From Candidatus Wukongarchaeum yapensis (lineage in GTDB: Archaea; Asgardarchaeota; Wukongarchaeia; Wukongarchaeales; Wukongarchaeaceae), in contig JAEOSI010000001.1 in NCBI GenBank assembly GCA_016840425.1, positions 1-28,347 of the forward strand: a stretch of DNA of 28,347 bases. Direction: 5' to 3'. The position numbers were made by a program, and so were the translations under genes. The notes below the pieces were generated by a model. It made no database searches and was not told where the DNA came from. It worked only from the letters and a program-made list of their open reading frames with translations. Shown here piece by piece: positions 77 to 16,856 of the stretch (the stretch's first letter is position 1; each line of letters starts with the position of its first letter).

Positions 77-1264
77 TTAGATAATGCTTAATTTTCTTCC
101 GACTTTTTCTATGGCGCTTAACGCTATATTCAGATCGTCTCTAGTTAATAATGCATTCATTTGTACTCTAATTCTTGAAAGTTCTCTTGCGACCATTGGA
201 TAGACGATGGGAGTTGTGAAAATATTTTCTTCTTCAAATAGTATTCTTGCTAGTTCTTGGGCTTTTCCAGGATCTCCTACGATTAACGGGATTATGGGCG
301 TTTGCGAATTTCCGGTGTTATAACCCATGCTTTGAACTTCTTTCTTGAAATAGTTAGTATGGTCCCAAAGTCTTTGTACGTGTTCGGGTTCGCTTTCAAC
401 TACTTTAATAACGGCGATACATGCTGCAACGACGCTGGGAGGATGAGCAGTGCTTAATAGATAGGTTCTACTCTTGTTTAGACAAAACTCGATTAAATCT
501 TTTGAACCTGCTACAGTTCCCCCGAAAACGCCAAAACCCTTGCTCATTGAGCCGCCTTCTACATGAACTTTTCCTTGTAGATTATAATGTGCTACGATTC
601 CTCTACCCTCTCCTAAAACTCCTTCTCCATGGCAGTCATCTACAAAAACCATTGCTCCAAATTCTTCAGAGATTTTCACTATTTCGGGTAAGGGAGCCAT
701 GTCTCCATCCATACTAAAAACTCCATCAGTGATAATTAAAATTCTTCGGGCTCCCTCTTTTTCAGCTTCTTTTAACTGGTTTTCTAAGTCTGAAACATTG
801 GTATGTTTATAAATAATTCTTTTAGCCCTGGATAATCTTACTCCATCAATGATGGATCCATGATTTAATTCGTCGGAAACAACGATGTCTTGTTTTCCGA
901 CTAATTGAGGTATAAGTCCTGTGTTAACAGCAAAACCTGTTTGGCATAATAGAGATGCTTCTACTTCTTTAAATTTAGCAAACTTTTCTTGGAATTCTTT
1001 TGTCAAATCAAAAGAACCTGCAATAACTGGTACGGCTCCAGCGCCTGCTCCGTATTTTTTTATAGCATCAATTGTAGCTTGAACAACTTTTGGATGTGTG
1101 GCAAGACCAAGATAATTATTCGTGTTAAGCATTAGAACTTCTTTTTGATCTACGATTGAGTGTGGTTTAGAGCTATCTTCGAGATACCTTATGGTCCAAT
1201 CAAGATTATTCTTTTTTAATTCGTTAATTTCCTCCCTAAGAAAAGCAACAGGATCTCTTTTCAT
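77..1264 (-). CDS. kbl: Glycine C-acetyltransferase (2-amino-3-ketobutyrate CoA ligase), class II PLP aminotransferase
   Basis: Motifs NNYLGLA, SDELNHGSIIDG, DGVFSMDGD, VDDCHG and PLP-lysine SMSKG. Divergent from a threonine dehydrogenase. ATG at 1264 preferred because GGTGA lies 5 nt upstream; the ORF track starts at GTG 1273. BioF-like activity cannot be fully excluded. Confidence 0.85.
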   Translation of the reverse strand: MKRDPVAFLREEINELKKNNLDWTIRYLEDSSKPHSIVDQKEVLMLNTNNYLGLATHPKVVQATIDAIKKYGAGAGAVPVIAGSFDLTKEFQEKFAKFKEVEASLLCQTGFAVNTGLIPQLVGKQDIVVSDELNHGSIIDGVRLSRAKRIIYKHTNVSDLENQLKEAEKEGARRILIITDGVFSMDGDMAPLPEIVKISEEFGAMVFVDDCHGEGVLGEGRGIVAHYNLQGKVHVEGGSMSKGFGVFGGTVAGSKDLIEFCLNKSRTYLLSTAHPPSVVAACIAVIKVVESEPEHVQRLWDHTNYFKKEVQSMGYNTGNSQTPIIPLIVGDPGKAQELARILFEEENIFTTPIVYPMVARELSRIRVQMNALLTRDDLNIALSAIEKVGRKLSII

Positions 1265-1447
1265 GTAAATCACCTAAAAAGCGTTTTTAAAATTTAAGAG
1301 AAGATTTTTAATTTTAAAGTGATTTTGGAAAGTTTATAGTTTTCCCTTTGTTGATAAAAGGGGTTGAAAATGGGAAAATAGATAACTTTTTTTATTGATT
1401 ATATTATGAATAATACTATTGTTTATTAAGTAAAATGATTGATAAAA

Positions 1448-2392
1448 ATGAGGAGAATTCTTGTAACGGGTTCTAGTGGTCAAATTGGGAGTGAATTAGT
1501 ACTTGCACTCAGAGAAAAATATGACAATGATAATGTGATTGCATCTGATATACGACCACCACAATTTAAGATTCAAAAAAGATCTGGTCCTTTTATAGTT
1601 ATGGACGTGTTGGATAAAGATTCTATTCCTAAAATTTTTGACGAATACGAAATAGATACTATTTTTCATTTGGCTGCAATACTTTCAGCTAAGGGAGAAA
1701 ATATACCTCAAACTGCGTGGGAAGTAAACATTCATGGTTTATTTAATATTCTAGAATTTGGACGAAAACATGATATTGAAAGAATAATTTGGCCAAGTTC
1801 GATTGCTGCGTTTGGACCAACTTCGCCAAGAGAAAATACTCCCAATGATACGATTTTGCAGCCAAATACAATCTATGGCATATCAAAGGTAAGTGGTGAG
1901 CTACTTGTTTCTTATTATTTTAAGAAGTATGGTCTTGATGCGAGGTCGATGAGACTTCCTGGAATAATTAGTAGTGAAGTTCTCCCTGGAGGGGGTACAA
2001 CAGATTATGCTGTAGAAATGTTTTATGAGGCAATCAAGAAAAAATTCTATACATGTTTTCTTAAGGGAGATACAGTCCTACCAATGATGTACATGCCAGA
2101 TTGCATTAGATGTATGATTGATCTTTTAGAAGCAGAGCCTTCGAAACTTAAACGACATGTATATAATGTCACTGCAATGAGTTTTTCACCTGGAGAATTA
2201 GCTGTTGAAATTAAGAAGCATATTCCTGATTTTAAAATAGAATATAAGCCAGATTTTAGGCAAGAAATTGCTGATTCATGGCCAAAAACGATTGATGATT
2301 CTCTTGCGCGTGAGGAATGGGGGTGGAATCCTAGTTATGATATTGTATCCATGACAAAAGATATGGTTTTTAAACTAAGAAAAAAATTATAG
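1448..2392 (+). CDS. tdh: L-threonine 3-dehydrogenase, extended SDR/epimerase type
   Basis: Rossmann motif GSSGQIG, YGISK (YxxxK), PGGGTTDYA and LPMMYMPD, plus RQEIADSWP, typical of SDR-type TDH. Paired with kbl. Confidence 0.85.
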   Translation: MRRILVTGSSGQIGSELVLALREKYDNDNVIASDIRPPQFKIQKRSGPFIVMDVLDKDSIPKIFDEYEIDTIFHLAAILSAKGENIPQTAWEVNIHGLFNILEFGRKHDIERIIWPSSIAAFGPTSPRENTPNDTILQPNTIYGISKVSGELLVSYYFKKYGLDARSMRLPGIISSEVLPGGGTTDYAVEMFYEAIKKKFYTCFLKGDTVLPMMYMPDCIRCMIDLLEAEPSKLKRHVYNVTAMSFSPGELAVEIKKHIPDFKIEYKPDFRQEIADSWPKTIDDSLAREEWGWNPSYDIVSMTKDMVFKLRKKL

Positions 2393-2434
2393 AAATAATA
2401 AAATAGGATTAGTTTGGAGGAGTTGTTTAGAAAG

Positions 2435-2442
2435 TTTTAAAT
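2435..2442 (+). promoter_or_regulatory. TATA box (TTTTAAAT) with purine-rich BRE-like GAAAG upstream, hsp20 promoter
   Basis: Sequence gaaagTTTTAAAT about 67 nt upstream of the hsp20 ATG. The predicted TSS falls near 2465. Confidence 0.5.
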
Positions 2443-2453
2443 ACTCATATGTG

Positions 2454-2477
2454 CTTGTTCACTTTTAGGTGAACAAG
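2454..2477. promoter_or_regulatory. Perfect inverted repeat CTTGTTCAC-N6-GTGAACAAG, candidate repressor operator
   Basis: 9-bp arms read directly at 2454-2462 and 2469-2477, spanning the expected TSS of hsp20. Confidence 0.6.
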
Positions 2478-2508
2478 TAAAGATTTGTTTTTTAGGAGGG
2501 TATCCTTG

Positions 2509-3075
2509 ATGTCTGATAAAGATGAAAAAAGACGTTGGAAAAGAAAGAGACGTTGGGATCCTTTTGATTTTTTTGGAGAAAGTGACGAAATTTTTGAGAG
2601 TATAATGGAGCAGATGGAAGATTTTATAAGGAAATTCACAAGGTTGCCTTCGCTTTTTGGCGAAGAAGATATGGAGAAATGGGGTAAACCTTTTGTTTTC
2701 GGTTTCAGTCTAGATATTGGACCTGATGGCAAGCCTAGGTTCAGGGAGTTTGGGAATATTAAGTCTAGGGGTCGCAATGTCGTGCCTTCCCAAGAACGAG
2801 AGCCTTTGGTAGATGTCTTTGAAGAAGCTGAACATGTGAGGGTTATTGCTGAAATTCCTGGAGTACAAAAAGAAGCCGTAGATCTGAAAGGATCAGAATT
2901 CAGTTTAACTATCCATGCAACCAATACAGATAGGAGTTATTACAAAGAAGTGTCTTTGCCTGTAGCGGTTGATCCTGCTACGGCTAAAGCAACGTACAAT
3001 AACGGTGTCCTGGAAGTGATGATAAAGCGAAAAGAGCCGAAAAAGGAAGAAGGTCATGATATCAAGGTAGAATAA
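2509..3075 (+). CDS. hsp20: Archaeal small heat-shock protein (Hsp20 / alpha-crystallin domain)
   Basis: PLVDVFE, IAEIPGV, ATYNNGVLEV and a C-terminal IKVE (IxI/V-like) motif. GGAGG lies 9 nt before ATG 2509. Confidence 0.92.
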   Translation: MSDKDEKRRWKRKRRWDPFDFFGESDEIFESIMEQMEDFIRKFTRLPSLFGEEDMEKWGKPFVFGFSLDIGPDGKPRFREFGNIKSRGRNVVPSQEREPLVDVFEEAEHVRVIAEIPGVQKEAVDLKGSEFSLTIHATNTDRSYYKEVSLPVAVDPATAKATYNNGVLEVMIKRKEPKKEEGHDIKVE

Positions 3076-3209
3076 AAAATCGGTTCCCATTATTGATATA
3101 TATAGAGTAGGATAGTAGGTGTTTTTTCTAACTAAATTAGGTTTATCAGTCATTTGTTTTTGTGGGATTGACCAATTTTCGTCACCCTTTTTTTGAGGAG
3201 GTATGATTC

Positions 3210-5447
3210 ATGAGTGATAAAAGTAACAAAAGTGATACTAAAACTGTTTTGAGAGTAGCAGAAGCTAAGCATAGGGACGTTGGTAGGAGTATGGCTAGAC
3301 TTGATCCAAAAGTTATGGAAAAATTAGACCTTTCTACGGGTGATGTGATCGAGATTAGAGGTAAAACAAGCACTGCTGCAATAGCATGGCCTAGCTACCC
3401 TGAAGATGCTGGTTTAGGTCTTGTTCGTATTGATGGTATTTTAAGATCTAACGCTCAGGTGGGGCTAGGAGACTCTATCGAAATCCGGAAAATAACCGCT
3501 AAGCCTGCTACCCAAGTAAACATCGCTCCTACAGAGCCTTTAAGATTAATTGGGGGTGAAAGGTATCTTCTCAGACTATTGGAAGGCAGGCCCATCATGA
3601 AGGGGGATAACATCCGTATAGACGTTGTTGGGAGAAGCCTTGAACTCGTAATCTCCAGTATTAATCCCCCAGCAGATGCTGTAATAGTGGTTCCTACTAC
3701 TAGAATAGTTTTAAGTGAGAAACCGGTAGTTTCTGAAATCCCTCACGTATCCTATGAAGATATCGGCGGACTCAAAAAGGAGATTCAACGCATAAGGGAA
3801 ATGGTTGAACTTCCCTTGAGGCACCCTGAAGTTTTCCAGAGGCTAGGAGTAGAGCCGCCTAAGGGAGTTTTGCTTTATGGTCCTCCTGGCACGGGTAAAA
3901 CACTGCTTGCAAAGGCCGTTGCCAGTGAAACCAACGCACACTTTATACCAATAAGCGGCCCTGAGATAATGAGCAAGTTTTACGGAGAATCTGAAGCAAA
4001 CATCAGAGGGATCTTTAAAGAAGCTGAAGAACGTGCGCCAAGTATCATATTCATCGATGAAATAGATGCTATAGCGCCGAAAAGAGAAGAGGTTACAGGT
4101 GAGGTTGAAAGAAGGGTTGTATCCCAGCTTCTTGCCTTGATGGATGGCTTAGAATCAAGGGGCCAAGTGGTCGTTATAGGTGCAACAAACAGGCCTAACG
4201 CTGTCGATCCTGCCTTAAGACGGCCTGGTCGCTTCGACAGAGAGATAGAGATAGGTATACCTGATAGAAACGGTCGATTTGAAATACTCCAGATTCACAC
4301 AAGAGGTATGCCTCTTGCAGATGATGTCGACCTTGAAAAATTGGGAGCTGTAACTCATGGATATGTGGGTGCAGATATAGCGGCTTTATCCAAAGAGGCT
4401 GCTATGCATGCCTTACGACGAGTACTTCCAGAAATTAATATGGAAGAAGAAACCTTGAGTCCAGAAATTTTAGATAAGCTCGTAGTAACTGATGAAGATT
4501 TCAACTCAGCCTATAAAGAGATAACGCCAACAGCTATGAGAGAAGTATTTGTTGAAGTTCCAATGGTCAAGTGGGCCGATATAGGCGGGCTAGAAGAGGT
4601 AAAACAAGAACTTAAAGAAGCAGTAGAATGGCCTCTAAAATATCCAGAAGTTTTCAGACAAGTAAACGCTAAACCTCCTAAAGGAATACTTTTATTCGGG
4701 CCTCCTGGTACCGGTAAAACACTATTAGCTAAAGCAGTAGCCAGTGAAAGTGAATCAAACTTTATCTCAATCAAGGGTCCTGAACTGTTAAGTAAATGGG
4801 TTGGCGAATCGGAAAGAGCAGTAAGAGAAATATTTAGGAAGGCAAAAAGCGCGTCTCCAAGTGTTATATTTATGGATGAACTTGATTCTATTACACCTCA
4901 CAGAGGCAGTGGAATCGGTGATTCAAGGGTTACTGAACGGGTAATCAGTCAAATTTTAACAGAGCTAGACGGTCTTATAGAACTCAATGACGTAATTGTT
5001 ATCGGGGCAAGTAATAGACCTGATATAATCGATCGTGCCCTTTTGCGTCCTGGAAGATTTGATAAGCTTATTTATGTTCCTTTACCTGATCACGCTGCTA
5101 GGGTACAAATCTTTAAGATCCATACAAGGGACTATCCTCTAGCTGATGATGTGGATCTCGAGGTTTTTGTTGATCAAACTGAAGATTATTCAGGGGCAGA
5201 AATTGAGGCCATTTGTAATGAAGCCTCAATGCTAGCGATACGGGAGTTTATCGATCAGTATGGCGGTGAAGGAAAAGAACAAGAACACTTAGAAAAGATA
5301 AAAATAAGCCGTGAACATTTCGAAAAAGCTATGAAGAAAGTTCCTAAAACAATTAAAAAAGGCGTTGAGTCTTATGAACGTTTTATTGATGAATTTAGAC
5401 AACAGCCTATCACTATGGGAAGAAGCGTACCAGATATTTACGGTTGA
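3210..5447 (+). CDS. cdc48: CDC48/VCP (p97) double AAA+ ATPase with C-terminal HbYX motif (IYG)
   Basis: N-domain, two GPPGTGKT Walker A motifs, DEID/DELD Walker [10 protein letters not shown] and RPGRFD arginine fingers, strong SD GAGGAGGT. Confidence 0.97.
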
Positions 5448-5508
5448 GCCCTACAAACGATTTATTGAGGAACTTAAAGATGGAGATATATTCTCAAAAA
5501 AAGAGTGA
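5443..5508 (+). other. Paralogous alternative CDC48 C-terminal tail in +1 frame ([21 protein letters not shown])
   Basis: 5443-5478 matches cdc48 5364-5399 at 28/36 nt and is codon-aligned ([12 protein letters not shown] vs [12 protein letters not shown]). Confidence 0.7.
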
Positions 5509-5514
5509 TTAGAG

Positions 5515-6288
5515 ATGTTATCCGAATACGAAACTAAAAAATTAAAACCTATTGAGATAATCGAAGAAGAGGCAATAGACCTTGAAGACAAAATAGTGAT
5601 CCAGGGATTTCCAGGAATGGGGCTTGTAGGCACAATAGCGGCTCACCACCTTGTCACTTCCTTAAACTTAAAACAGGTAGGCTACTTAGTAGGCATAGAG
5701 ATGCCTCCAATAGTTGTAGTGCACCAGAGCAAACCGATGTCTCCTGTCCGTATTTATTCCAACGAAGATTTCGCTTTAGTAGTTTCTGAAATAGCTATCC
5801 CAAACTATACCGTTTATCCCTTAGTAAAAACGTTGCTTGAATGGTACAAAGAAAAAAACGTCAAAGAAGTAGTGGTAATAGGGGGGTTGGGAAACCCCGA
5901 TCGTTTAACCCTCGAAGAGTTAGAAGTTTTCGGCGTTTCTACGAATGAAGATACCCGCAAATTTTTAGAAAGTCATGATGTAAAAATCCTTGATGAAGGG
6001 GTTTTAGTAGGTCCATTAGCGGTAACTTTGAGGGAAAGTGTCGTATCAAATATCCCAGCTTACGGCCTGCTATCCCAGTGTTTTTCCAAATTTCCTGATC
6101 CTGATGCAGCTGCCCGAGTTTTGCAAGTTTTAGAAAGTCTTGTTGGAATAAAAGTAGATCTAAACACTCTTTTTGAAAAGGCTGAAGAGTTAAAGATAAG
6201 GATGCGAGATCTAGCAAAACGTACAGATCAAGAGGCAAAAATGGCGGAACAAGAAGCAGCTACAGCGCCAAAAAGCTACTACAGTTAG
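5515..6288 (+). CDS. PAC2-family proteasome assembly chaperone (PbaA/PbaB-like) with HbYX tail (YYS)
   Basis: GFPGMGLVGTIAAHHL, PxRIY, PDPDAAARVL, and a C-terminal coiled segment ending KSYYS. Confidence 0.9.
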   Translation: MLSEYETKKLKPIEIIEEEAIDLEDKIVIQGFPGMGLVGTIAAHHLVTSLNLKQVGYLVGIEMPPIVVVHQSKPMSPVRIYSNEDFALVVSEIAIPNYTVYPLVKTLLEWYKEKNVKEVVVIGGLGNPDRLTLEELEVFGVSTNEDTRKFLESHDVKILDEGVLVGPLAVTLRESVVSNIPAYGLLSQCFSKFPDPDAAARVLQVLESLVGIKVDLNTLFEKAEELKIRMRDLAKRTDQEAKMAEQEAATAPKSYYS

Positions 6289-6365
6289 AAAGCAAAGGGT
6301 AGTTCAAGATTTAAAATAGGTGGATTTTGTTGGCTAGAAATAAGGAAGGACAAGAAACAAAAAAA

Positions 6366-6878
6366 ATGGCTTCAAGCGATGAAAATATTGAAACCCTTTT
6401 TAGAGCGTTGAGTAATGAGGCTAGAAGACGTATAATTGGACTTCTAGCTAACGGTCCAATGTATCTACGCCAGATCCACAGAACTTTAGAAGAAGAAATA
6501 GGAATGCATATACAAGCAGTTGCTAAGCATCTCTCTCTTTTAGAAGAAAGCGGTATACTTTCAACATATTCTGAACGGTCGCCTAGAGGTCCTCATCGTA
6601 AATATTTTTGTTTGAATGAAGGAAAATTGCTTACTATATTCTTATCTCCTCTCTGTTTATCAGTTCCTTCCCTTCTATCTTTTAATGAAAAAAGAGCAGA
6701 GAAGATCTTTGATCGCGTACGCTTTCTATCAGATGAAGAAGCTGATAAACAATTAGCCGGGATAAAAACTTTAAAGGAACAGTTTGAAAAATCCATCTCA
6801 ATTTTAGAAGAGTTTTTAGAAATCTATCAAAGAGTTCTTAAAAAGTTAGAATCTATTGAAGAGAGTGAAGAACCCTAA
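6366..6878 (+). CDS. ArsR-like winged-HTH regulator with C-terminal coiled coil, Phr/HSR1-like heat-shock repressor
   Basis: LSNEARRRIIGLL, AVAKHLSLLEESG and wing ERSPRGPHRKYF resemble, from memory, Pyrococcus Phr. Adjacent to hsp20 and cdc48. ATG 6366 chosen over TTG 6327. Confidence 0.75.
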   Translation: MASSDENIETLFRALSNEARRRIIGLLANGPMYLRQIHRTLEEEIGMHIQAVAKHLSLLEESGILSTYSERSPRGPHRKYFCLNEGKLLTIFLSPLCLSVPSLLSFNEKRAEKIFDRVRFLSDEEADKQLAGIKTLKEQFEKSISILEEFLEIYQRVLKKLESIEESEEP

Positions 6879-6941
6879 AACTTAACCGTTTATTAAAATT
6901 AAAACGATAAATCCATAGTTACCTTGAGTAGGGGATAATCT

Positions 6942-7199
6942 TTGTCAGACTTTGAACGAAATAATCTTTTAAGACTTGTAAGAATGGGTATTCTATCCCC
7001 TTCATTTAAAGAAGAGGAAGTGGAGTTTACAATAGTTTTTGCTATTTGGAAAGAGTTCAGAGGCGCCTGTATACACGCCGAAGTCGAATCCCTCAAACCG
7101 CCTACTCTTCGTTGTAATAGTGTTCAAGGTCTTTGCGAGTTAGCGACATGCCCTATAATTCGAAAAGCTTTAGACCTCTTTGAAAGAAAAAGAAGATAA
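6942..7199 (+). CDS. Small hypothetical protein with four C-terminal Cys (possible metal binding)
   Basis: 85 aa ORF with TTG start after an AGGGGA SD-like motif. C-IH-x12-C-x6-C-x4-CP. Followed by a T-rich tract. Confidence 0.5.
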   Translation: MSDFERNNLLRLVRMGILSPSFKEEEVEFTIVFAIWKEFRGACIHAEVESLKPPTLRCNSVQGLCELATCPIIRKALDLFERKRR

Positions 7200-7273
7200 A
7201 ATAAAATGTTTCTTTTCGAGTTTTTATAGAAATATTTTTCTCATAAATTCGTATTTTTTGATCGAGTTTTTTT

Positions 7274-7879
7274 TCATTTTTTTCTTCTTTCAGGATGCCA
7301 AAATTCTGCATAAGTTCTTGCGAATTCCTCCTCTTCATCTAAGTCTTTAACCATATTTTTCCATTCTTCGTTGACAATTAAGTCATAATTCTTTTGGAAG
7401 AATTGTGTATAAAAGTGGTGTCCGACTTCGTGTCTTACGGTATTTTGAAGCATTTTCTTTATTTTCTCTTTCTCAAGCGTTATTTCAACAGTTAAAGAGG
7501 TGAAAGAATAAACTATTACCGTGGCAGTATCCTCATCATAGGCGCCTAAAACATCTCTTCCCAGAAAATATCCTTCATCTTCATGGGAAAAAATGTTTTT
7601 ACTTACGATCTTTAAAAGCTGTAGATTTTCTGTTTTAAGATGGGTTAAAGGTACGTATACTAGTGCTTTTTGAACATCTTCTGCTGAGAGTTGAACTCTT
7701 CTTTTTTTCGATTCTTTCTCTACAAAAACGTTAATACCTTCACAAATCTCATACTTTTCTGCGGCGGGGAATAGTCTTTCCTCTTCTTCTGTTTTCACAA
7801 GTTTTTTAGGTTTTGGCAAATTTTTGCCATACTTAAGAATAAGGGAGTGGGGATACTCTGACTCTAACAGTTCTTCTAT
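7274..7879 (-). CDS. Zincin-like HExxH metallopeptidase-family protein
   Basis: RHEVGHHF, a downstream EEFARTYA third-ligand-like helix, and an LGAYD edge strand. The frame is open 20 codons above TTG 7819 to ATA 7879, which follows GGAGG by 8 nt. Confidence 0.65.
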   Translation of the reverse strand: MEELLESEYPHSLILKYGKNLPKPKKLVKTEEEERLFPAAEKYEICEGINVFVEKESKKRRVQLSAEDVQKALVYVPLTHLKTENLQLLKIVSKNIFSHEDEGYFLGRDVLGAYDEDTATVIVYSFTSLTVEITLEKEKIKKMLQNTVRHEVGHHFYTQFFQKNYDLIVNEEWKNMVKDLDEEEEFARTYAEFWHPERRKK

Positions 7880-7914
7880 GTTTTTCGCCTCCTTTTTCTT
7901 TTAAAACTCCTTAA

Positions 7915-9132
7915 TTAAGGTTTTAACCCTGTTTTTAGGCGATTTATGAAATATCTCCAGACTACCCCTCTTAAAGCCTTTTTATAGCTTCCACCGCCAA
8001 AGAAAATTATTCGCAAATTTTGCCTTAATTTAGCGTCCTTTTTAGCATAACTTGCTATCCTACTACCCCTCTTCTTTTTATAGACCTGTTCAACAACTTT
8101 CTCACAAACTTCAAACTCATCTCCAAGCTCCTCTTTCCACGCCTCTTGATATTTTACCATTGTCTCTGATGAAAAATCGTCTTTCGCAAAAGCATAATCT
8201 AAGGTTTCTACAGCTAACTGGGCTGTTTTTGCAGCATGATACAAGCCTTCGCCAGTTAAAGGATTAATAAAACCTGCTGCGTCTCCTGTGAGAAGCAGTC
8301 TATTTCTAAACGTTTTTTCAACCCTTCTAGAAACCGGTATTAAACCGATCACAGGAGGTTTGAAATCGATATTTTTGAGAACCCCTCTTTTTTTAAGATC
8401 TTGAACAAACAGATTAAAAAATATTTTAAGAGTTCTCGACTCTAAAAGATTACCTCCGACCCCTACGTTTAAAGCTCTCTCTTTTGGGAAAACCCACCCG
8501 TATCCAAAACTCCCTATATCTAAGTGTATCTCTGCAAGTTCCTCTTCTAAAAAATCGTTTGAAGCTCCTTCCATTAAAGGGGATTCAGAAACATAACAAG
8601 CTCCGATTTCATGTGACTTCCATTTATTAAAAAGCCCTGCTTTGCGGGCAACAGTGCTTGGAAAGCCATCAGCCCCAATAACCGCTTTTCCAAAATAGTC
8701 TTTTCCGTCAAAAGTCTTAACTTCGACAACTCCTTCACTTACGTTTATACTAGTCACGTGATTCTTCGTTAAAGTCTTGGCTCCTGCTTCTTCTGCCATC
8801 TTGAACAGCTCATAGTCAAACTCCGCCCGGTTTACCCCATAAAAAAGTGGTTCATTTGAACTTTCACCTGAAATCTCAAAAGCATCATTTCGAGCATAAG
8901 TTAAAACACGCTTCACAGGTTTTACAGAAAATTGCGGGTTGATCTTATGGAAACCATAAATTTTCCAAGCCCTTAAAGTAACCCCTCCGCCACAAGGTTT
9001 TTCTCGAGGAAAACTTTTCTTATCGATCAATCCTACCTCATACCCTTTTTCCGCTAAAAGTCTCGAAGCGAAAGACCCTGAAGGCCCAGCCCCTACTACG
9101 ACAACATCAAACTTCTCGCTCATGTTTTTCAT
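7915..9132 (-). CDS. Geranylgeranyl reductase family FAD-dependent oxidoreductase (DGGGPL reductase-like)
   Basis: GAGPSG FAD motif, PREKPCGGG, GADG, YGWVFPK, GDAAGFINPLTGEG. Start may be ATG 9123. Confidence 0.88.
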   Translation of the reverse strand: MKNMSEKFDVVVVGAGPSGSFASRLLAEKGYEVGLIDKKSFPREKPCGGGVTLRAWKIYGFHKINPQFSVKPVKRVLTYARNDAFEISGESSNEPLFYGVNRAEFDYELFKMAEEAGAKTLTKNHVTSINVSEGVVEVKTFDGKDYFGKAVIGADGFPSTVARKAGLFNKWKSHEIGACYVSESPLMEGASNDFLEEELAEIHLDIGSFGYGWVFPKERALNVGVGGNLLESRTLKIFFNLFVQDLKKRGVLKNIDFKPPVIGLIPVSRRVEKTFRNRLLLTGDAAGFINPLTGEGLYHAAKTAQLAVETLDYAFAKDDFSSETMVKYQEAWKEELGDEFEVCEKVVEQVYKKKRGSRIASYAKKDAKLRQNLRIIFFGGGSYKKALRGVVWRYFINRLKTGLKP

Positions 9133-9282
9133 GACCTCTAAATCTTTTCTTTTTATAATCTTTGAGTGTTATGGTTTTTATGGGTGTTATACGACCATAA
9201 AATATTAAAGTATCCTTTACAACCACTTTAAGGGTTTAAAATAGAATGAATACTTATAAAATACGGTATAAGGATGATTTAA

Positions 9283-9897
9283 ATGAGTAATCGGCGGCTC
9301 AGAAGTTGGTATGAACTAAAATTTGCATCTTTTGGCCGTTTTCTGGCAAAGCGCGGATTTACTGCAAACTTTTTTTCTGCTTTAAGCATTCTAACAGCCC
9401 TTTTTGTAGCCTTAGCTTATTATTATCATTATCCTTGGCTTGCAGCTATCTTGATCCTTTTAACTGGTTTTTTTGATATGCTTGATGGCAGTGTTGCAAG
9501 AGCTGCTGGAACCGCTTCAGAATTTGGAACTGTTCTTGACCATTCTATCGACAGATATGCTGAATATTTTTTTCTTTTAGGTGTTATGATCGGAGATTAT
9601 GCCGAACCTTTCTGGGTTTTATTTGCTTTTTTTGGCATGATTATGGCAAGCTATGTGAGGGCAAAAGCAGAAAGCATGGGAGTAGAATCATGTAGTGTAG
9701 GAATAGCTGAAAGGAAGGAAAAACTTTCCCTTCTAATAATAGGTTCCCTCCTTGTGACATGGTTTGAAGACGTTAAAATCCCGATAATAAACGAAACTAT
9801 CGGCCTTCTTGAACTTACCGTAATCCTGATAGGCATCTTATCCCATATCTCTGCCATTCAAAGAATTGCATACGCAAAAAAACTCCTAGCAACCTAA
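9283..9897 (+). CDS. CDP-alcohol phosphatidyltransferase, probably archaetidylinositol-phosphate synthase
   Basis: Signature DMLDGSVARAAGTASEFGTVLDHSIDR, SYVRAKAE, G-x-AERKE, multiple TM segments. Confidence 0.85.
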   Translation: MSNRRLRSWYELKFASFGRFLAKRGFTANFFSALSILTALFVALAYYYHYPWLAAILILLTGFFDMLDGSVARAAGTASEFGTVLDHSIDRYAEYFFLLGVMIGDYAEPFWVLFAFFGMIMASYVRAKAESMGVESCSVGIAERKEKLSLLIIGSLLVTWFEDVKIPIINETIGLLELTVILIGILSHISAIQRIAYAKKLLAT

Positions 9898-9988
9898 AAC
9901 TCTCTATACCCTCCCTCAAAAACCAAAAAAAGGAATAACATAAAAAGGAAAAGATGATGAATTCTTTTCTTTTAAAATTGCTCTTTTT

Positions 9989-10537
9989 TCATATTTTTGC
10001 GTTTTCTCGGATCCTTTTTGCCAGAACCTTAAAAACATCCTCCACGTTTGTCCCATCTTTAGCCGAGGTTTCGAAGTACTCCATGCCTCTTTTCTTTGCG
10101 TATTCTTCTGCCTCTACTGTCGATACCTTTATCTGATCTTTAAGATCGCTTTTATTGCCTACCAAAAATGTTGGTATTCCGGGGGTTGTATAACTCTTCA
10201 GTTCATCCAACCACTTCTCAACGTTATAAAAGCTGTTCTTTTCACATAGAGAAAAAACTATAACTCCTCCAGTAGCACCCCGATACCAAAAAGAATGTAG
10301 TTGTCCCAACTTTTCTTGTCCGCCCGTGTCCCAAATAAGAAGCTTGATTTTTTGATCGCCGATGGTTAGGCTTTTAGAAAAAAGATCTAAGCCAAGGGTC
10401 GTATGATAACTTGTAGTGAATGAGCCCTCACAGTATCTTCTTGCGAGGGAAGTTTTCCCCACCCGACCTTGCCCGATTACCACTACTTTAAACAAAACCT
10501 CTTTGTGCTTTTTTTTAGTGGTTGTTTTTGTTGTCAT
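9989..10537 (-). CDS. Rab-like small GTPase, copy 1
   Basis: G1 GQGRVGKT, G2 T (YHTTLG), G3 WDTGGQE, G4 NKSD, G5 ETSAK, RabF-like LGLDL/KLLIW/WYRGA. No C-terminal Cys. Confidence 0.93.
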   Translation of the reverse strand: MTTKTTTKKKHKEVLFKVVVIGQGRVGKTSLARRYCEGSFTTSYHTTLGLDLFSKSLTIGDQKIKLLIWDTGGQEKLGQLHSFWYRGATGGVIVFSLCEKNSFYNVEKWLDELKSYTTPGIPTFLVGNKSDLKDQIKVSTVEAEEYAKKRGMEYFETSAKDGTNVEDVFKVLAKRIRENAKI

Positions 10538-10613
10538 GATTTGTCCTCATGAAAACAGTTAGTTTAGTACATTGATATATAGAACACGTTAATTATTTAC
10601 TTTGCGAAGGTTA

Positions 10614-10710
10614 ACAGAATATCAGTATTTTCTCTTTTTCTTTTAGGTATTATGATTGGAGATTATGCCGATCATGCCTATTAACCTATCAACTTAAAAC
10701 GCTCTATGCC
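10614..10710 (+). pseudogene. Decayed fragment of the CDP-alcohol phosphatidyltransferase gene (duplication relic)
   Basis: 10637-10671 matches 9571-9605 at 33/35 nt. It is joined to sequence resembling the gene's 3' end and trailer (about 9886-9920). Confidence 0.85.
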
Positions 10711-10792
10711 CCCCGCCAAAAAAACCCCAAAAAAAGGAATAACATAAAAAGGAAAAGATAATGAATTCTTTTCTTTTAAAATTGCTCTTTTT

Positions 10793-11341
10793 TCATATTT
10801 TTGCGTTTTCTCGGATCCTTTTTGCCAGAACCTTAAAAACATCCTCCACGTTTGTCCCATCTTTAGCCGAGGTTTCGAAGTACTCCATGCCTCTTTTCTT
10901 TACATATTCTTCTGCCTCTACTGTCGATACCTCTATCTGATCTTTAAGATCGCTTTTATTGCCTACCAAAAATGTTGGTATTCCGGGGGTTGTATAAATC
11001 TTCAGTTCATCCAACCACTTCTCAACGTTATAAAAGCTGTTCTTTTCACATAGAGAAAAAACTATAACTCCTCCAGTAGCACCCCGATACCAATATGGTC
11101 TGAGTTGTCCCAACTTTTCTTGTCCGCCCGTGTCCCAGATGAGAAGTTTGATTTTTTGATCGCCTATGGTTAAATTTTTAGAGAAAAGGTCTAAGCCAAG
11201 GGTCGGCTGATAACTAGTAGAGAACCTGCCCTCACAAAATCTTCTTGCGAGGGAAGTTTTTCCCACACCACCTTGCCCGACTACTACTACTTTGAACAAT
11301 AACACTGAACGCCTTGATTGGATGTTTGTTTTTGTTTCCAT
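10793..11341 (-). CDS. Rab-like small GTPase, copy 2
   Basis: G1 GQGGVGKT, YQPTLG, WDTGGQE, NKSD, ETSAK. Offset 804 bp from copy 1. Confidence 0.93.
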   Translation of the reverse strand: METKTNIQSRRSVLLFKVVVVGQGGVGKTSLARRFCEGRFSTSYQPTLGLDLFSKNLTIGDQKIKLLIWDTGGQEKLGQLRPYWYRGATGGVIVFSLCEKNSFYNVEKWLDELKIYTTPGIPTFLVGNKSDLKDQIEVSTVEAEEYVKKRGMEYFETSAKDGTNVEDVFKVLAKRIRENAKI

Positions 11342-11611
11342 GATTTGTCCTCATCGAAAAATTAGTTTACTATTAATTTAATTTATGGAACTCATTAATT
11401 ATTTGTTTTACTGTAGGGGGTTGTTCTTCTTTTTCCGTTTTGTTTTTCGTTTTTCTTTGTGGAAAACGGGTTTTTGATTTTTGTATCTTTCTTATAATGG
11501 GTTTATTTTTGTTTCTATTTTTTTGGGGTGTTTTCGTTTTACATGGTTTTTTGCGGGTGAATCATGGTTTTCTCTTATTTCTTGTTTTTTTCTAGAGTTT
11601 TTTGCTCTTTT

Positions 11612-12046
11612 TTAATCGATAACTATGATTTTATAGCCGTTGAAAAATTAGACGTAAACGGTTTGATAAGGATTAGTTATAATGCTCGAAATATAATGGA
11701 TTCCTCTTGGTACAAATTCGCTCAATTTCTGTCTTACAAGGCTGAGAGAGCTGGTAAGACGGTTGTAAAAGTGAATTCAAGAGTAACTACGCAAGAATGT
11801 TATAAATGCGGTAAAGAAGTGGAGAAAAGCTTGGCTGTAAGAACCCATAAATGTCCTTACTGTGGTTTAGAAATTGATAGAGACTACAACTCCGCTTTTG
11901 TAGTCTTGAAAAAAGGTTTAGAAGAAGTGTTAGGGCAAGGATTGTCCGAATTTACGCCTGTGGAGATAGAACCTTTACCGAGAGAGATCTTGGCATGTTC
12001 AGTCGTTGAATCAGGAAGCTCCTTCCAATAGGTAAGAGCAGTTCAC
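11612..12046 (+). mobile_element. tnpB: 5'-truncated IS200/IS605-family TnpB remnant with intact right end
   Basis: YDFIAVEKL (RuvC-II Glu), CxxC..CPxC zinc finger, DRDYNSA (RuvC-III Asp). RuvC-I and the N-terminal lobe are absent. The first about 16 codons of the called ORF are T-rich non-TnpB sequence. Confidence 0.88.
11933..12046 (+). ncRNA. Probable TnpB omegaRNA/reRNA scaffold and right-end hairpin
   Basis: Hairpin GGGCAA-GGA-TTGTCC (11933-11947), ACGCCTGTGGAGA, GAATCAGGAAGC, subterminal hairpin 12018-12039 and terminal GTTCAC. This is the usual layout of archaeal IS605 right ends. Confidence 0.6.
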
Positions 12047-12056
12047 TGTAGCAATT

Positions 12057-13169
12057 CTAACCATCTTTGAGTTTTATTACCTGATTTATAAGCCCCATCC
12101 TTATCGCTAAATCCGTCAACGCAAACGCTATCACTGATTCTATTACTGGGACAGCTCTTGGTACTATACAAGGATCATGCCTTCCTTTCCCTAAAATCTC
12201 AACAGTTTTCTTCGTCTTAAGGTCGACAGTTTTCTGAGGTTTTCCAATTGTAGCGGTAGGCTTTATCGCAACTCGTAAAACAAGGGGTTCCCCGTTAGTT
12301 ATGCCGCCAAGTATGCCTCCAGAATTATTATTAAATGTTTTTATATTCCCATCTTCTGCAACGTAAAACTGATCATTATGCTCTGAACCCCTCATGACAG
12401 CTGCTTTAAACCCAGCACCAAATTCCACGCCCTTTACTCCCGGTACTGCAAAAATCGCCTTAGCTAATTCGCCCTCTACCGTATCGAAAACAGGTTCTCC
12501 TAAGCCAGGAGGAACATTTAAAGCAATGCATTCTATAATGCCTCCCACACTATCCCCTTCTTCCTTTACCTTTTCAATCAGCTCAACCATCTTTTTTGCA
12601 GCTTCTGGATCTCCACATCTAACTAGATTATTCTCGATCTGACCTTTTATCTCCTCAATGCTCATATCTTTAGCTTTAATATCACCTATCTGCACAGTGT
12701 AGGCTAAAATTTCAACTCCTAAAACTTTTCTTAGCAATTTTTTTGCTATGGCTCCCGCTATAACAAAAGAAACAGTAATCCTACCAGAAAAACGCCCACC
12801 GCCCCTATAATCTGAAAATCCACCGTATTTTACAAAGGCTGTATAATCTGCATGACCGGGTCTTGGGGTAAATCTTATTCGAGTATAAAAACTCGAATCA
12901 ACATCCTTATTCCAAACAAGGGCACAAATAGGCGCGCCCGTGGTATAACCATTAAAAACTCCCGACAAAATTTGGACGAGATCACTTTCTTTTCGCGGCG
13001 TACTAATCCCTGACTGTCCAGGTCTCCTCTTATCCAACTCCTTCTGAATATCCTCCTCTTTTAAAGCCAAACCAGCAGGACATCCATCGACCACAACTCC
13101 TACACATTTCCCATGAGATTCTCCAAAAGTCGTAATCCTGAAAAATTTCCCAAAACTATTCCCATCCAT
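12057..13169 (-). CDS. aroC: Chorismate synthase
   Basis: TFGESHG, RPGHAD, GGGRFSGR, GGILGGI, GRHDPC. Start overlaps the aroA stop (TAATG). Confidence 0.96.
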   Translation of the reverse strand: MDGNSFGKFFRITTFGESHGKCVGVVVDGCPAGLALKEEDIQKELDKRRPGQSGISTPRKESDLVQILSGVFNGYTTGAPICALVWNKDVDSSFYTRIRFTPRPGHADYTAFVKYGGFSDYRGGGRFSGRITVSFVIAGAIAKKLLRKVLGVEILAYTVQIGDIKAKDMSIEEIKGQIENNLVRCGDPEAAKKMVELIEKVKEEGDSVGGIIECIALNVPPGLGEPVFDTVEGELAKAIFAVPGVKGVEFGAGFKAAVMRGSEHNDQFYVAEDGNIKTFNNNSGGILGGITNGEPLVLRVAIKPTATIGKPQKTVDLKTKKTVEILGKGRHDPCIVPRAVPVIESVIAFALTDLAIRMGLINQVIKLKDG

Positions 13170-14488
13170 TAACCAAAACCCCCATCATCTCTTCTTTCAA
13201 TCTTAACACCAAGCTTTTCGAAATCATTCCAAAACCCAGGATAAGAAACATCAACACACTCTGCATCCTTTATCTCCACAGGATAACGAGCTTTAAGGGC
13301 TGCAACGCTTAAAGCCATAGCCATCCTATGATCACCATACGATTCTACCTTAACACCTCCCTTAATCTCCTCCCCCCCACAGGTAACCATCCCATCTTTC
13401 TTTTCTTCCAGCTTTACTCCCATCTTAACCAACTCTACCGCAGGTCCATGTATCCGATCACTCTCCTTAACCCTCGCATGTTCTGCCCCCTCCAAAATCA
13501 TAACCCCTTTAGCACAAGCCCCGAGAGCCGCTAAAACCGGCACCAAGTCCGGTGTATCCCTACAATTAACCTCAACACCCTTAAGTTCACCCTTCCCCTC
13601 AACAATAATACCACTTTCACAATCTGAAACTTTGGCCCCCATCTCCCTAACAATATCAACTATCCTCGCATCCCCCTGAACACTATCCGTCTTAAGCCCT
13701 AAAAGCTTAACCTTTGACTCGGTTACCGCCGCCGCAGCAATCAAAAAAGCAGCAGAAGAAAAATCTCCTGGAATATAAAAATTTACAGGATTATACCTCT
13801 GAGTCGCAGGAATAAAAAACCCCCAGTCTTCCCTCTCAACCTTAACACCAAAAAGATCAAGCATCTCCAAAGTTATCTCAATGTAAGGACTACTGACAAG
13901 ATCTCCCAAAATCCTAATACTGCAATCACGCTCACCCAAAGGAGTGACCAAAAGCAAAGCCGTAATAAATTGAGAACTAACATCACCTCTAATAGTCACT
14001 TCCCCACCCCTAAAACCCCCTCCTTCAACCACTATAGGCGCCAAACCATTATCCCTCGTACTCCAAGCCTTTACCCCAAGCTGCTGAAGCGCATCCAAAA
14101 GCGGCTGCATTGGCCGTTTCCTAATAGAATCATCCCCCGTTAAAACAGTAACACCTGGAGATAAACCCGCAACAGCGGTAATAATCCTCAAAGTAGTCCC
14201 CGAATTCTCAACATTTATAACATCCTCTGGGGGCTCAATCTTCCCAAACCCACAAACCTCCAATAACTTTTCACCCTCCTCTCCCCTTTTTTCCATTATT
14301 GAAGCCCCAAAAGCTTTACAAGCCTTAACCGTAGCCAAAGTATCACGAGAAAAAAGAGGGTTAAAAATCCTAGAAACTCCCTCACTTAAACTAGCCAGAA
14401 TCACTGCCCGATGGGTATAACTTTTAGAAGAAGGTACCCTAACCTCCCCAAACAACCTATTAGCAGGATAAATTATCACACTACTCAT
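13169..14488 (-). CDS. aroA: 3-phosphoshikimate 1-carboxyvinyltransferase (EPSP synthase)
   Basis: PSSKSYTHRA, ENSGTTLR, SSQFITALL, RVKESDRI, DHRMAMA. ATG 14488 preferred. Confidence 0.96.
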   Translation of the reverse strand: MSSVIIYPANRLFGEVRVPSSKSYTHRAVILASLSEGVSRIFNPLFSRDTLATVKACKAFGASIMEKRGEEGEKLLEVCGFGKIEPPEDVINVENSGTTLRIITAVAGLSPGVTVLTGDDSIRKRPMQPLLDALQQLGVKAWSTRDNGLAPIVVEGGGFRGGEVTIRGDVSSQFITALLLVTPLGERDCSIRILGDLVSSPYIEITLEMLDLFGVKVEREDWGFFIPATQRYNPVNFYIPGDFSSAAFLIAAAAVTESKVKLLGLKTDSVQGDARIVDIVREMGAKVSDCESGIIVEGKGELKGVEVNCRDTPDLVPVLAALGACAKGVMILEGAEHARVKESDRIHGPAVELVKMGVKLEEKKDGMVTCGGEEIKGGVKVESYGDHRMAMALSVAALKARYPVEIKDAECVDVSYPGFWNDFEKLGVKIERRDDGGFG

Positions 14489-14584
14489 AAAAGGCACACA
14501 CCAACAATCCAAAAAACGGAAAATAAATAAAACCTACTCTCAACCAAAAACAGTTTAAATTTAATTTTAATATTTTTTACTTTT

Positions 14585-15445
14585 TTATAAAAATCGCCCA
14601 GCCTTTACATTATTTATCTTTACCCTTAAAGTCTCCCCAGAAAATCTCTCCAACACATCAATTATAGCGTCCCCTTCCCCTAAAGGAGTTACGGCAAACA
14701 TGGTAGGTCCAGTGCCACTAACTCCCGCTGCAAGGGCTCCTGCCGCTAAAGCATCAACAATAAACCTTGTATCTAACCCATAAACGACAGCGCATAATAA
14801 ACCGTTTAAAGTTATCGCTTCCCACACTCGTCCTTTTAAAGCAAACCCATGAGCTTGAAGAAAAAGATCTTTAAAAACCCACAAAGGCTTCTCTTTAGTG
14901 TCTACGGTTTTAACCTTTTTTGAAGGAATTTTTAATAAAACCTCAAAATCCTCGCTAAACATCTCCCTCAACAAAATTTCTCTCTCACGATTATCGGTAA
15001 CCACTAGTCCTCCAAAAAACGAGGTGCAAGCATCATCAAAAGCACCGGTAATCGTGACCCTTGCGTCAACACAAGCATCAACTCCCAAATTAACCGCTTC
15101 TAAATCATCGATTTCCTCGTCCAAAGCACCTGTAACAGCTAAAACCACAGCATTAGCTGCAGCACTCGAACTTTTCAGACCCCGAGCCACAGGAATATTA
15201 GACCTAGTAACAACCCTAACACCCACTTCCTCCATCAAATTAAATCTTTTCAAAACTATTAAAGCAGCTTTTTCGATCAAAATAGTGTCTACAGAAGGAT
15301 CCCCTAAAACCTCCCCCTCTATCCTAGGTTCACTCAAAACAACAGCCTCTGCCTCGGCCCACAAATCCACCCCCAAAGCAGCACCCCTCCAAGTAGCAAT
15401 CGCATTAACAACAGAGACAGCAGAATGACTCCTATAACCAACCAA
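14585..15445 (-). CDS. aroK: Archaeal shikimate kinase (GHMP family)
   Basis: VVNAIATWRGAA, PVARGLKSSSAAANA, TGAFDDA, GVSGTGP. Confidence 0.92.
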   Translation of the reverse strand: MVGYRSHSAVSVVNAIATWRGAALGVDLWAEAEAVVLSEPRIEGEVLGDPSVDTILIEKAALIVLKRFNLMEEVGVRVVTRSNIPVARGLKSSSAAANAVVLAVTGALDEEIDDLEAVNLGVDACVDARVTITGAFDDACTSFFGGLVVTDNREREILLREMFSEDFEVLLKIPSKKVKTVDTKEKPLWVFKDLFLQAHGFALKGRVWEAITLNGLLCAVVYGLDTRFIVDALAAGALAAGVSGTGPTMFAVTPLGEGDAIIDVLERFSGETLRVKINNVKAGRFL

Positions 15446-15641
15446 TCCTTAACACATCCCAAAAATCTATTCAACTTCATTCTCAAAAACAGTTACATAA
15501 AAACCTTCTCGCGACCAGGAACCGTTATCGCGTCCATCAGAGTGTGGTTAACCATTTTTCTACATTATTTTGTAGAGTTTAAAGTCTTCTATTATAAGAG
15601 ATGTACAGGCTTTACTATAACTGACATACTCTCCACTCTAA

Positions 15642-15923
15642 AGGGTTGGAGGTTCAGTTATAGTTACTAAAAAAGGAAAACTTTTAGGGATGTTCACGTT
15701 TCATGATTTAGTTGATAGAGTTTGGGGAATAGGGAAGGCGGAGGAAACCCTTATCGGGGAGGCAATGTCACCCTTGATAAAAGTTTCAAGCTTGTAAGAT
15801 ATAGTAGAAGCAACAAAATTGATGCTGAAAAACCGGTTAATATTTGTTGCTGTAATGTATGTGGAAGATGTGGTAGGTATTCTCTCAAGCCACAATCTAA
15901 TCAGATACCTGTCAAAATTATAA
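15642..15923 (+). pseudogene. CBS-domain-pair protein pseudogene (not in the ORF track)
   Basis: Frame from 15642 reads RVGGSVIVTKKGKLLGMFTFHDLVDRV...IGEAMSPLIKVSSL*DIVEATKLMLKNRLIFVAVMYVEDVVGILSSHNLIRYLSKL*. Internal TAA at 15795-15797 and a broken 5' end. Confidence 0.75.
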
Positions 15924-15998
15924 CCGAAAGGGAGACGTATCAACAAAAAACGAGTTCATTTTGTGTTCGTCTTCCGCCATTTTCCTATTTTTTGTGAA

Positions 15999-16856
15999 TT
16001 ATTCCTTTTTTAAGGATTTTAAAACTGTTTTTTTCATGATCTCTATTGGTGCCTTTTTGTCTGTCCATTTTTCAAAAGCTTCTGCCCCTTGATAAACCAA
16101 CATTTCTATTCCATCAATCGCTCTCAGTCCAACAGATTTTGCCTCCCGTAGAAGCCTTGTTTCTGGAGGATTGTATACGATGTCAAAAACGGTTAACTTT
16201 TCATGGAGTAGTTCTTGAGGAACGATGGTTTCTTCTGTGTGTGGATACATTCCTACAGACGTTGTGTTCACTAATAATTCTGCTTCTAAAATAGCTGCTT
16301 TTAAATCTTCATAAATCAATTTTTTTGCAATTATAGGTATTTTCACTGTTTTTAAAATGTCCTCTACTAACCTTTTCGCCCTTTGGAAAGTCCTATTAAG
16401 AACAGTTATCTTACCCGCAAACTTAGCGAAAGTAAACACAATAGCCCTTGCAGCCCCCCCTGCACCCAAAATAACGATCCTTTTTCCATCCAATTCAAAC
16501 CCTCCCTCCGTAACAGCCCTAAGTGCCCCCATACCATCGGTGTTATAACCTTTAAAGATTCCATCCTCATTTACCACGCAGTTTACAGCCCCTATTTTTA
16601 AAGCAGTTTCATCCACCTCATCAAGATACTTAATACACTCTTCCTTGTGCGGTATCGTCACATTAAAACCGCAAAAATTCAGCGCCTTAAACCCTGAAAT
16701 CGTCTCACTTAAATTTTCCTTTTGCACCCTAAAAGCCAAATAAACATAGTCTAGATCTAGGTGTTGAAAAGCGGCATTATGCATATCAGGTGAAAGGGAA
16801 TGATGTATCGGATCCCCTATTACTGCGCAAGCAACAGTTTTACTCGTTATGGGCAT
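15999..16856 (-). CDS. aroE: Shikimate dehydrogenase
   Basis: GDPIHHSLSP, NVTIPHK, NTDG, GAGGAARA, NTTSVGM, DIVYNP, MLVYQG. Confidence 0.96.
   Translation of the reverse strand: MPITSKTVACAVIGDPIHHSLSPDMHNAAFQHLDLDYVYLAFRVQKENLSETISGFKALNFCGFNVTIPHKEECIKYLDEVDETALKIGAVNCVVNEDGIFKGYNTDGMGALRAVTEGGFELDGKRIVILGAGGAARAIVFTFAKFAGKITVLNRTFQRAKRLVEDILKTVKIPIIAKKLIYEDLKAAILEAELLVNTTSVGMYPHTEETIVPQELLHEKLTVFDIVYNPPETRLLREAKSVGLRAIDGIEMLVYQGAEAFEKWTDKKAPIEIMKKTVLKSLKKE

Follow-up and report, generated by a model that had tools for sequence, protein, structure and literature searches.

The genome of Candidatus Wukongarchaeum yapensis (GCA_016840425.1) encodes two adjacent Rab-like small GTPases, here called A and B, whose 3' halves are nearly identical and whose 5' halves are diverged. 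Both genes lie on the reverse strand of the stretch analyzed here, the first 28,347 nucleotides (nt) of contig JAEOSI010000001.1 (the window). Gene A (A0, 9989-10537) is the downstream copy of the tandem pair and gene B (B0, 10793-11341) the upstream copy; both are intact open reading frames (ORFs) in the same orientation, and the encoded proteins, of 182 residues each, share 87% amino acid identity. This arrangement is very probably the result of concerted evolution by recurrent intrachromosomal gene conversion after an old tandem duplication. The observations themselves comprise the converted tract, its breakpoints, the occurrence of both copies in independent assemblies, and concerted site patterns between strains, within the genus and at greater depth. 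A first-pass annotation of the same DNA, made by reading the sequence alone, had proposed an older duplication followed by recent conversion of the C-terminal half, and this proposal was supported by the occurrence of the pair in five lineages and by the rejection of an orthology tree for the 3' part.

The homogenised tract and its 5' boundary

The homogenised tract occupies positions 9923-10289 in copy A and 10727-11093 in copy B (both on the reverse strand) and comprises codons 84-182 plus a non-coding trailer. At a fixed offset of 804 nt the two copies differ at 5 of 367 positions (9956, 10098, 10100, 10129, and 10194), exactly as the first-pass annotation had counted. The trailer (9923-9988), which had been estimated at about 65 nt, measures 66 nt and contains one mismatch (65 of 66 positions are the same). 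The adjoining 5' parts (10290-10537 in A and 11094-11341 in B, reverse strand) encode the N-terminal tail, β1, the P-loop, switch I, β2-3 and switch II. Within them the 205 nt at 10290-10494 hold 31 mismatches, in agreement with the earlier estimate, and many are silent: 23 codons differ between codons 15 and 83, 12 of them in a purely synonymous manner (Nei-Gojobori Sd 17.5, Nd 13.5).

The transition between the two parts is abrupt. Seven of the nine positions in 10290-10298 (codons 80-83, LHSF in A vs LRPY in B) differ and directly abut the identical tract. A maximum chi-square test for gene conversion placed the breakpoint at codon 83.7, a value that was reached in 0 of 2000 permutations, and the longest run of identity between A and B was also longer than expected (p = 0.007). 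Synonymous differences affect about 17 of 48 sites in the 5' part vs 1 of 63 in the 3' part (Fisher p = 1.2e-6), corresponding to synonymous divergences (dS) of 0.50 for codons 15-83 and 0.016 for codons 84-182. The sharp end at switch II that had been proposed therefore holds for this genome; it is, however, specific to the species, as in a congeneric assembly (G001, described below) the tract begins at codon 120.

The amino acid changes from A to B comprise I21V, R25G in the P-loop, the group Y35F, S39R, T41S, H45Q, and T46P at the end of helix 1 and in switch I, S56N, and H81R/S82P/F83Y in the switch II helix. These locations, obtained by mapping on an AlphaFold model, agree with the first-pass annotation, which had named the P-loop, switch I and switch II. 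Its description of the N-termini as unrelated was overstated: they are strongly diverged yet can be aligned at the nucleotide level, with 29 of 45 nt in common in codons 1-15.

Site patterns and trees across five lineages

The tandem pair was detected in the same synteny in four further assemblies, one conspecific and three at about 87% nucleotide identity. Together with the window genome (lineage 0) these make up five lineages and ten GTPase sequences, numbered accordingly (A0, B0 and so on). Lineage 1 is G001 (JBHLKN010000010.1), of the same genus as the window genome; lineage 2 is SMTZ1_10003634, at about 87% nucleotide identity; lineage 3 is JAUQYV020000079.1 (assembly L125, GCA_030587555.2), conspecific and 99% identical over 6.5 kb; and lineage 4 is an ENA scaffold, at about 87% identity, whose locus was found in three samples at 99.7%. 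The nearest proteins outside this orthogroup are at most 50% identical.

The contrast between the two halves is most evident between the window genome and G001. In the coding 5' part, 13 informative sites follow orthology (A0=A1, B0=B1) and 1 is concerted; from 10289 to 9917, which covers the 3' part and trailer, none is orthologous and 24 are concerted (A0=B0, A1=B1), a difference with a Fisher p of 2.6e-9; site patterns were tallied likewise for all ten quartets of the five lineages. The dS between orthologs (0.24-0.27) is about equal in both halves, and within genomes the tract dS is 0.016 for A0-B0 and 0.069 for A1-B1, with trailers homogenised within each of the two genomes. Silent and non-coding sites are thus alike within genomes and diverged between them, which shows concerted evolution and excludes plain constraint. 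Both genes are under purifying selection, since the dN/dS of their orthologs ranges from 0.07 to 0.33.

The extent of homogenisation varies among lineages. In G001 the maximum chi-square breakpoint lies at codon 120.7 (significant by permutation) and the tract starts at codon 120 and takes in the whole duplicated trailer (about 112 nt), with A and B matching at every position over about 300 nt; outside the tract A and B are uniformly less diverged (dS 0.2). In lineage 2 the similarity of A and B is raised only over the last 40 codons or so, and A2-B2 dS in the 3' half reaches 0.76. The 3' halves of lineages 2 and 4 differ by 14-25%, and these two lineages show little recent conversion.

Trees were constructed with IQ-TREE, using ultrafast bootstrap and approximately unbiased (AU) tests, separately for the two parts: the 5' parts were placed by paralog, that of A0 with the A orthologs and that of B0 in a clade with the other B copies, and the 3' parts and trailers by genome. 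For the 3' part the orthology tree was rejected (delta lnL 64, AU p 6e-7), and in the ten-sequence 3' tree the copies cluster by genome in lineages 0/3, 1, and 2 with supports of 82-90%.

With regard to the age and direction of the exchange, ten sites of the 3' part show the pattern A2=A4 vs B2=B4. The distinct 3' halves in lineages 2 and 4 imply that the duplication predates all five lineages and that an ancestral B-type 3' half existed. At these ten diagnostic sites both copies of the window genome are A-type at 8 and B-type at 2, and those of G001 are A-type at 6 and B-type at 4, from which it follows that the B 3' half was mostly overwritten by A, on top of older patches copied from B to A. 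The ten-sequence 3' tree did not resolve a direction of conversion (supports 35-50%).

Conversion also continued after the two strains of this species separated. This conclusion was supported by the comparison of the window genome with L125, in which derived alleles common to both copies of only one strain were found at 10282, 10261, 10247, and 10181. Three non-synonymous differences between A and B (S/I115, K/E137, and A/V147) are kept in both strains, and at codon 100 copy B of L125 has the B-type allele where the window genome has the A-type. In addition, codon 2 of copy A in L125 (L125 positions 3804-3812; window 10533-10534) is B-type, encoding ME instead of MT. The Shine-Dalgarno-like motif and start region are identical between the copies at this site, and the change is possibly a very short conversion patch in the 5' part. 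A cluster representative (P0001, a 945-nt contig) encodes an A-type protein with the B allele I115 and the A alleles K137 and A147; in some populations or assemblies, as in this contig, the paralog-specific sites of the tract occur in mixed combinations.

Probable course of conversion and competing explanations

BLAST delimits the homology between the two copies to 9885-10598 vs 10685-11404 (89%), so the duplicated unit comprises a promoter region of about 60-75 nt, the gene, and a trailer of about 105-110 nt. The region upstream of A (10538-10598, reverse strand) is homologous to 11342-11404 upstream of B and contains an A/T-rich promoter-like box and a GAGG Shine-Dalgarno-like motif; in a ten-sequence alignment the upstream variants are paralog-specific and kept across lineages. 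A scan of the locus for sigma-70 and terminator consensus sequences returned nothing useful for an archaeon. At the other end, the distal trailer of A (9885-9922, reverse strand), delimited by the trailer alignment and the BLAST limit, overlaps the last codons of a convergent CDP-alcohol phosphatidyltransferase gene; it was not recently converted in this genome and has a diverged counterpart behind B (10685-10726). The spacer between A and B contains decayed pieces of the same lipid-synthase gene, one from its middle (10635-10671, forward strand, matching 9569-9605 at 35 of 37 positions) and one from its last codons (10685-10726). These pieces show that the unit first duplicated extended further and that about 270 nt of it were lost afterwards.

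Based on these observations, the following course can be proposed. A single Rab-like GTPase gene would have been duplicated in tandem, together with its promoter, its trailer and part of the lipid-synthase gene, before the five lineages split. Both copies stayed intact, with promoters of their own; as they are direct repeats 804 nt apart, homologous recombination would repeatedly copy one onto the other in a non-reciprocal manner. Recent tracts would be anchored at the 3' end and in the trailer, where the copies are most alike, and extend in the 5' direction to variable points, with the recent flow in the 3' half being mostly from A into B and older patches from B to A. The 5' part (N-terminal tail, β1/P-loop, switch I, and β2) would keep its paralog-specific residues, and the promoters likewise. 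In this species conversion would halt at the cluster of 7 mismatches in 9 nt, and its 5' limit may be maintained because convertants are selected against, because the mismatch cluster keeps heteroduplex from extending further, or for both reasons.

Among the competing explanations, rounds of unequal crossing-over, in which the pair shrinks to a single hybrid gene or grows to three copies and then returns to two, fare best, and they are still improbable. Tandem direct repeats are a substrate for either process, and one assembled contig has the exact structure of a deletion product: L059 (Ga0209635_10166325, JGI, 1801 nt; window 11798-9194) carries a remnant of a TnpB gene, the B 5' part, the tract and the A downstream flank, and skips the A 5' part and the spacer, with a change from B-type alleles to the A-type allele between positions 10098 and 9956. 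This contig may, however, be an assembler shortcut. Moreover, all five lineages keep two copies with paralog-specific promoters and N-termini and a spacer relic, which deletion and re-duplication would erase, and the short, patchy tracts, which include single sites and a patch of 36 nt between strains, fit conversion well.

A second alternative holds that a collapsed or consensus repeat was written twice by the assembler and that the true copies differ throughout. The source genome is a metagenome-assembled genome (MAG) of 2.16 Mb in 277 contigs, based on short reads and 92% complete; the repeat exceeds a typical read length, strain variants of the tract co-occur within samples, and L059 shows what a shortcut through the repeat would look like. 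Collapse was also the refutation that the first-pass annotation had foreseen. To address it, Logan per-run contigs from four studies were mapped on 9300-10726, which covers one copy with its flanks and avoids the internal repeat. A long contig extends from the A flank to 30 nt inside the tract, others cross 10289/10290 into the A 5' part, and others reach from 10464, within A, across the spacer and the B trailer to 30 nt into the second tract; loose contig ends read B-specific sequence behind the tract. The junctions of the repeat were in this manner bridged in separate studies. One contig corresponds exactly to 9923-10289; in two runs its depth exceeds that of the flank by a factor of about 1.5, where two copies with five popped single-nucleotide bubbles should give 1.6. 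The agreement is a weak hint, as contig depth is not copy number. Minor haplotypes among the Logan contigs are the same as copy B of L125. In four runs the contigs lack the A allele at 9956, which is present in L059; since contigs drop variants, neither this absence nor the stretches that no contig covers count as evidence.

The other assemblies argue in the same direction. Those of lineages 2 and 4 resolve 3' halves that are 14-25% apart, the latter repeated in three samples at 99.7%, and the five independent assemblies have lineage-specific tract ends and substitutions common to both copies. An assembler merges near-identical repeats but cannot replace a diverged half; for this reason, and given the lineage-specific outcomes in five assemblies, collapse of the tract is unlikely and the main pattern is taken as real, so that an artefact can be given very little credence as an explanation of the whole.

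The third alternative, that no recombination occurred and the 3' half is under stronger nucleotide constraint, for instance by an antisense ORF or RNA structure, can practically be dismissed, since the ortholog dS of the tract matches that of the 5' part, as many as 24 substitutions occur in both copies of one genome and nowhere else, the non-coding trailer behaves alike, and the 3' halves of lineages 2 and 4 are diverged (dS 0.76 in lineage 2); in its favor stand two antisense ORFs inside the converted tracts, at 9954-10136 (60 residues) and 10761-10940 (59 residues), both on the forward strand. These are probably chance frames of AT-rich DNA, because orthologs diverge freely there at silent sites.

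Returning to gene conversion, the first-pass annotation had held that the effector surfaces of the two proteins stayed distinct, and this holds with qualifications. Across the five lineages, the alignment columns in which A and B have no residue in common are 7, 8, 13, and 14, in the N-terminal tail, and 21, 41, 46, and 56; in A and B, respectively, position 21 is I/V, 41 is T or F/S, 46 (just before the Mg-binding Thr47) is T/P, and 56 is K or S/N. The switch II difference (HSF vs RPY) is instead a derived state of the A copy in this species only and not a conserved paralog difference. Selection may keep the effector surfaces distinct, and it is plausible that selection for distinct switch I and N-terminal surfaces removes longer convertants. 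The C-terminal lobe from β4 to α5, with the G4 and G5 motifs, would be shared and interchangeable, and the N-terminal tail and switch I (T/P46) might set partner or membrane specificity. The joint reading, in which the limit is set by selection, the C-terminal lobe is freely interchangeable, identity resides in the tail and a few switch I residues, and conversion is still segregating, is offered tentatively and is rather less likely than not to hold in full.

Several observations qualify the course outlined above or weigh against it. In switch I and II the A copy of G001 resembles B (F35, R39, Q45, P82, and Y83), which implies that the 5' part was also exchanged formerly and that the switch regions are not immune, and a neutral barrier, set up by sequence divergence, would produce the persistent 5' divergence just as selection would. 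Support for the clade of all five B copies in the ten-sequence 5' tree is only moderate (72%), and for this part the orthology tree is preferred, but not significantly (AU 0.12 for the concerted tree). At the level of assembly, Logan contigs bridge the junctions without phasing the interior of the tract, so that the assignment of single alleles to A or B is tentative; short-read assembly can erase a few true differences inside a 367-nt repeat; and L059 reflects either a shortcut taken by the assembler or a genuine deletion allele, with one copy, produced by crossing-over. Regulators of the longin, roadblock or TBC type were not present among the ORFs scanned (window 77-16856).

Protein family, related systems and gene neighborhood

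A and B are Ras-superfamily small GTPases. Pfam Ras (PF00071) was matched with E-values of 1.4e-51 for A and 6e-52 for B and scores of 174.8 and 175.9 bits (cut-off 21.6), covering profile positions 1-161 of 162, and all G motifs are present in both copies: GQG(R/G)VGKT at 22-29, T47, DTGGQ at 70-74, NKSD at 128-131, and SAK at 158-160. In a 25-sequence alignment G22, G27, K28, T29, T47, D70, G73, Q74, K129, D131, and S158-K160 are invariant, and T71 and G72 nearly so. The AlphaFold2 (AF2) model obtained for A from this alignment (mean pLDDT 87.9, i.e., 88; pTM 0.85) is a canonical six-stranded G domain with the element order β1-α1-β2-β3-α2-β4-α3-β5-α4-β6-α5, preceded by a disordered tail of about 10-13 residues that differs between A and B. 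A Foldseek search with this model returned Rabs as all top 50 matches (TM 0.86-0.89), and the top 60 matches of a sequence search of the PDB were all Rab/Ypt proteins, the best being Rab21/23/1/11 (E 1e-39, about 40% identity over the whole G domain). Inspection by eye suggests a resemblance of KLLIW and WYRGA to the RabF2 and RabF4 signature motifs and only a loose match of LGLDL, KLGQLH, and IVFSLC to F1, F3, and F5.

A C-terminal cysteine prenylation motif (CC, CXC, or CAAX-like) is absent, as both proteins end in ...RIRENAKI and their sole cysteines are C36 and C98; the hypervariable C-terminal tail is also absent, helix α5 spanning residues 165-179 of 182 in the model. Without such a cysteine and without a tail beyond α5, A and B are Rab-like as the term is applied to Asgard GTPases (PMC10933270) and not Rabs in the strict sense. 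Eukaryotic Rabs (Rab1/Ypt1, Rab8, Rab11, Rab21, and Rab23) share with them the fold, the catalytic Gln in DTGGQ, NKSD, and SAK, and differ in possessing the hypervariable tail and the C-terminal Cys lipidation motif. Like the Asgard Rab-like GTPases known from the Thor-Rab structure and the MK-D1 survey (PMC10933270), A and B have all G motifs, Rabs as their closest solved structures, a truncated C-terminus without prenylatable cysteines, and many paralogs in the genome. Unlike those, they form a clade-specific orthogroup with a disordered 13-residue N-terminal tail that differs between paralogs; evolutionary dynamics of paralogs are not described in that work (PMC10933270).

The mechanism is textbook, and the A/B locus is a new, ordinary example of conversion between duplicated genes. 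Partial conversion between functionally diverged prokaryotic paralogs, with the specificity part spared, has been reported for domain 3 of RF1/RF2 (Ishikawa et al., 2015, PMC4530459) and for archaeal chaperonin subunits (Archibald and Roger, 2002, as cited in PMC4530459). The pair resembles these cases in that conversion affects the presumed functionally shared part, the putative specificity part stays distinct, the direction is variable and the exchange is detected by conflicting phylogenetic signal. It differs from them in that A and B are adjacent direct repeats, the tract enters a non-coding trailer, and its end moves and is not bound to a domain; conversion is moreover recurrent at three depths (strain, genus, and deeper) and concerns Asgard small GTPases. 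Long-lasting recurrent concerted evolution in prokaryotes has been described for tuf, mtrA, mtmB/C, and archaeal histones, with fla and mtrA as tandem pairs (PMC6053082). There too, recurrent conversion leaves paralogs within a genome closer than orthologs between genomes; those cases, however, involve whole genes and the seven archaeal ones are all from methanogens, whereas in A/B only the 3' half is affected, within a shallow clade. The list in PMC6053082 includes no GTPase or Asgard case, and a literature search found no specific report of gene conversion in Asgard GTPases.

Asgard archaea have large families of Rab-, Rag-, and Arf-like GTPases, whose expansion and specificity bear on the origin of eukaryotic membrane traffic. 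The locus is a natural experiment: recombination erases the divergence of one half of the gene, and a few residues and the N-terminal tail stay specific to each paralog in five lineages. The tail and positions 21, 41, 46, and 56 are thereby candidates for specificity tests, and the locus shows that in these uncultured organisms short direct repeats undergo homologous recombination. It also carries a warning, as trees of full-length Asgard GTPases can misplace older pairs as recent lineage-specific duplicates. On the joint reading described above, and if 3'-biased homogenisation of tandem GTPase pairs recurs in other Asgard genomes, it would act as a general brake and filter on the diversification of the large GTPase families.

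The genome contains 18 Ras-like matches, of which the next paralog to the A/B pair is only 44% identical. A third, donor copy was not found in this 92%-complete genome, which has two copies only, and a second tandem GTPase pair, on contig C127, lacks a homogenised tract. The A/B pair is flanked on one side by the CDP-alcohol phosphatidyltransferase gene and a geranylgeranyl-reductase-like gene and on the other by a shikimate-pathway operon. As the first-pass annotation had supposed, the organism is an Asgard archaeon, its close relatives bearing Asgard labels at NCBI; the labels of the same-genus and same-species assemblies G001 and L125 are in conflict (Candidatus Hodarchaeota and Candidatus Wukongarchaeota). 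Upstream of gene B lies an ORF of 155 residues (11564-12031, forward strand) with the C-terminal TNB/zinc-ribbon domain (PF07282, E 3e-22) as the sole remaining part of a TnpB/Cas12f-like protein. This truncated IS200/IS605-type remnant is present in the conspecific assembly L125 and absent at the site in G001, L058, and L126, and on insertion it took the place of the sequence immediately upstream of the gene B promoter region.

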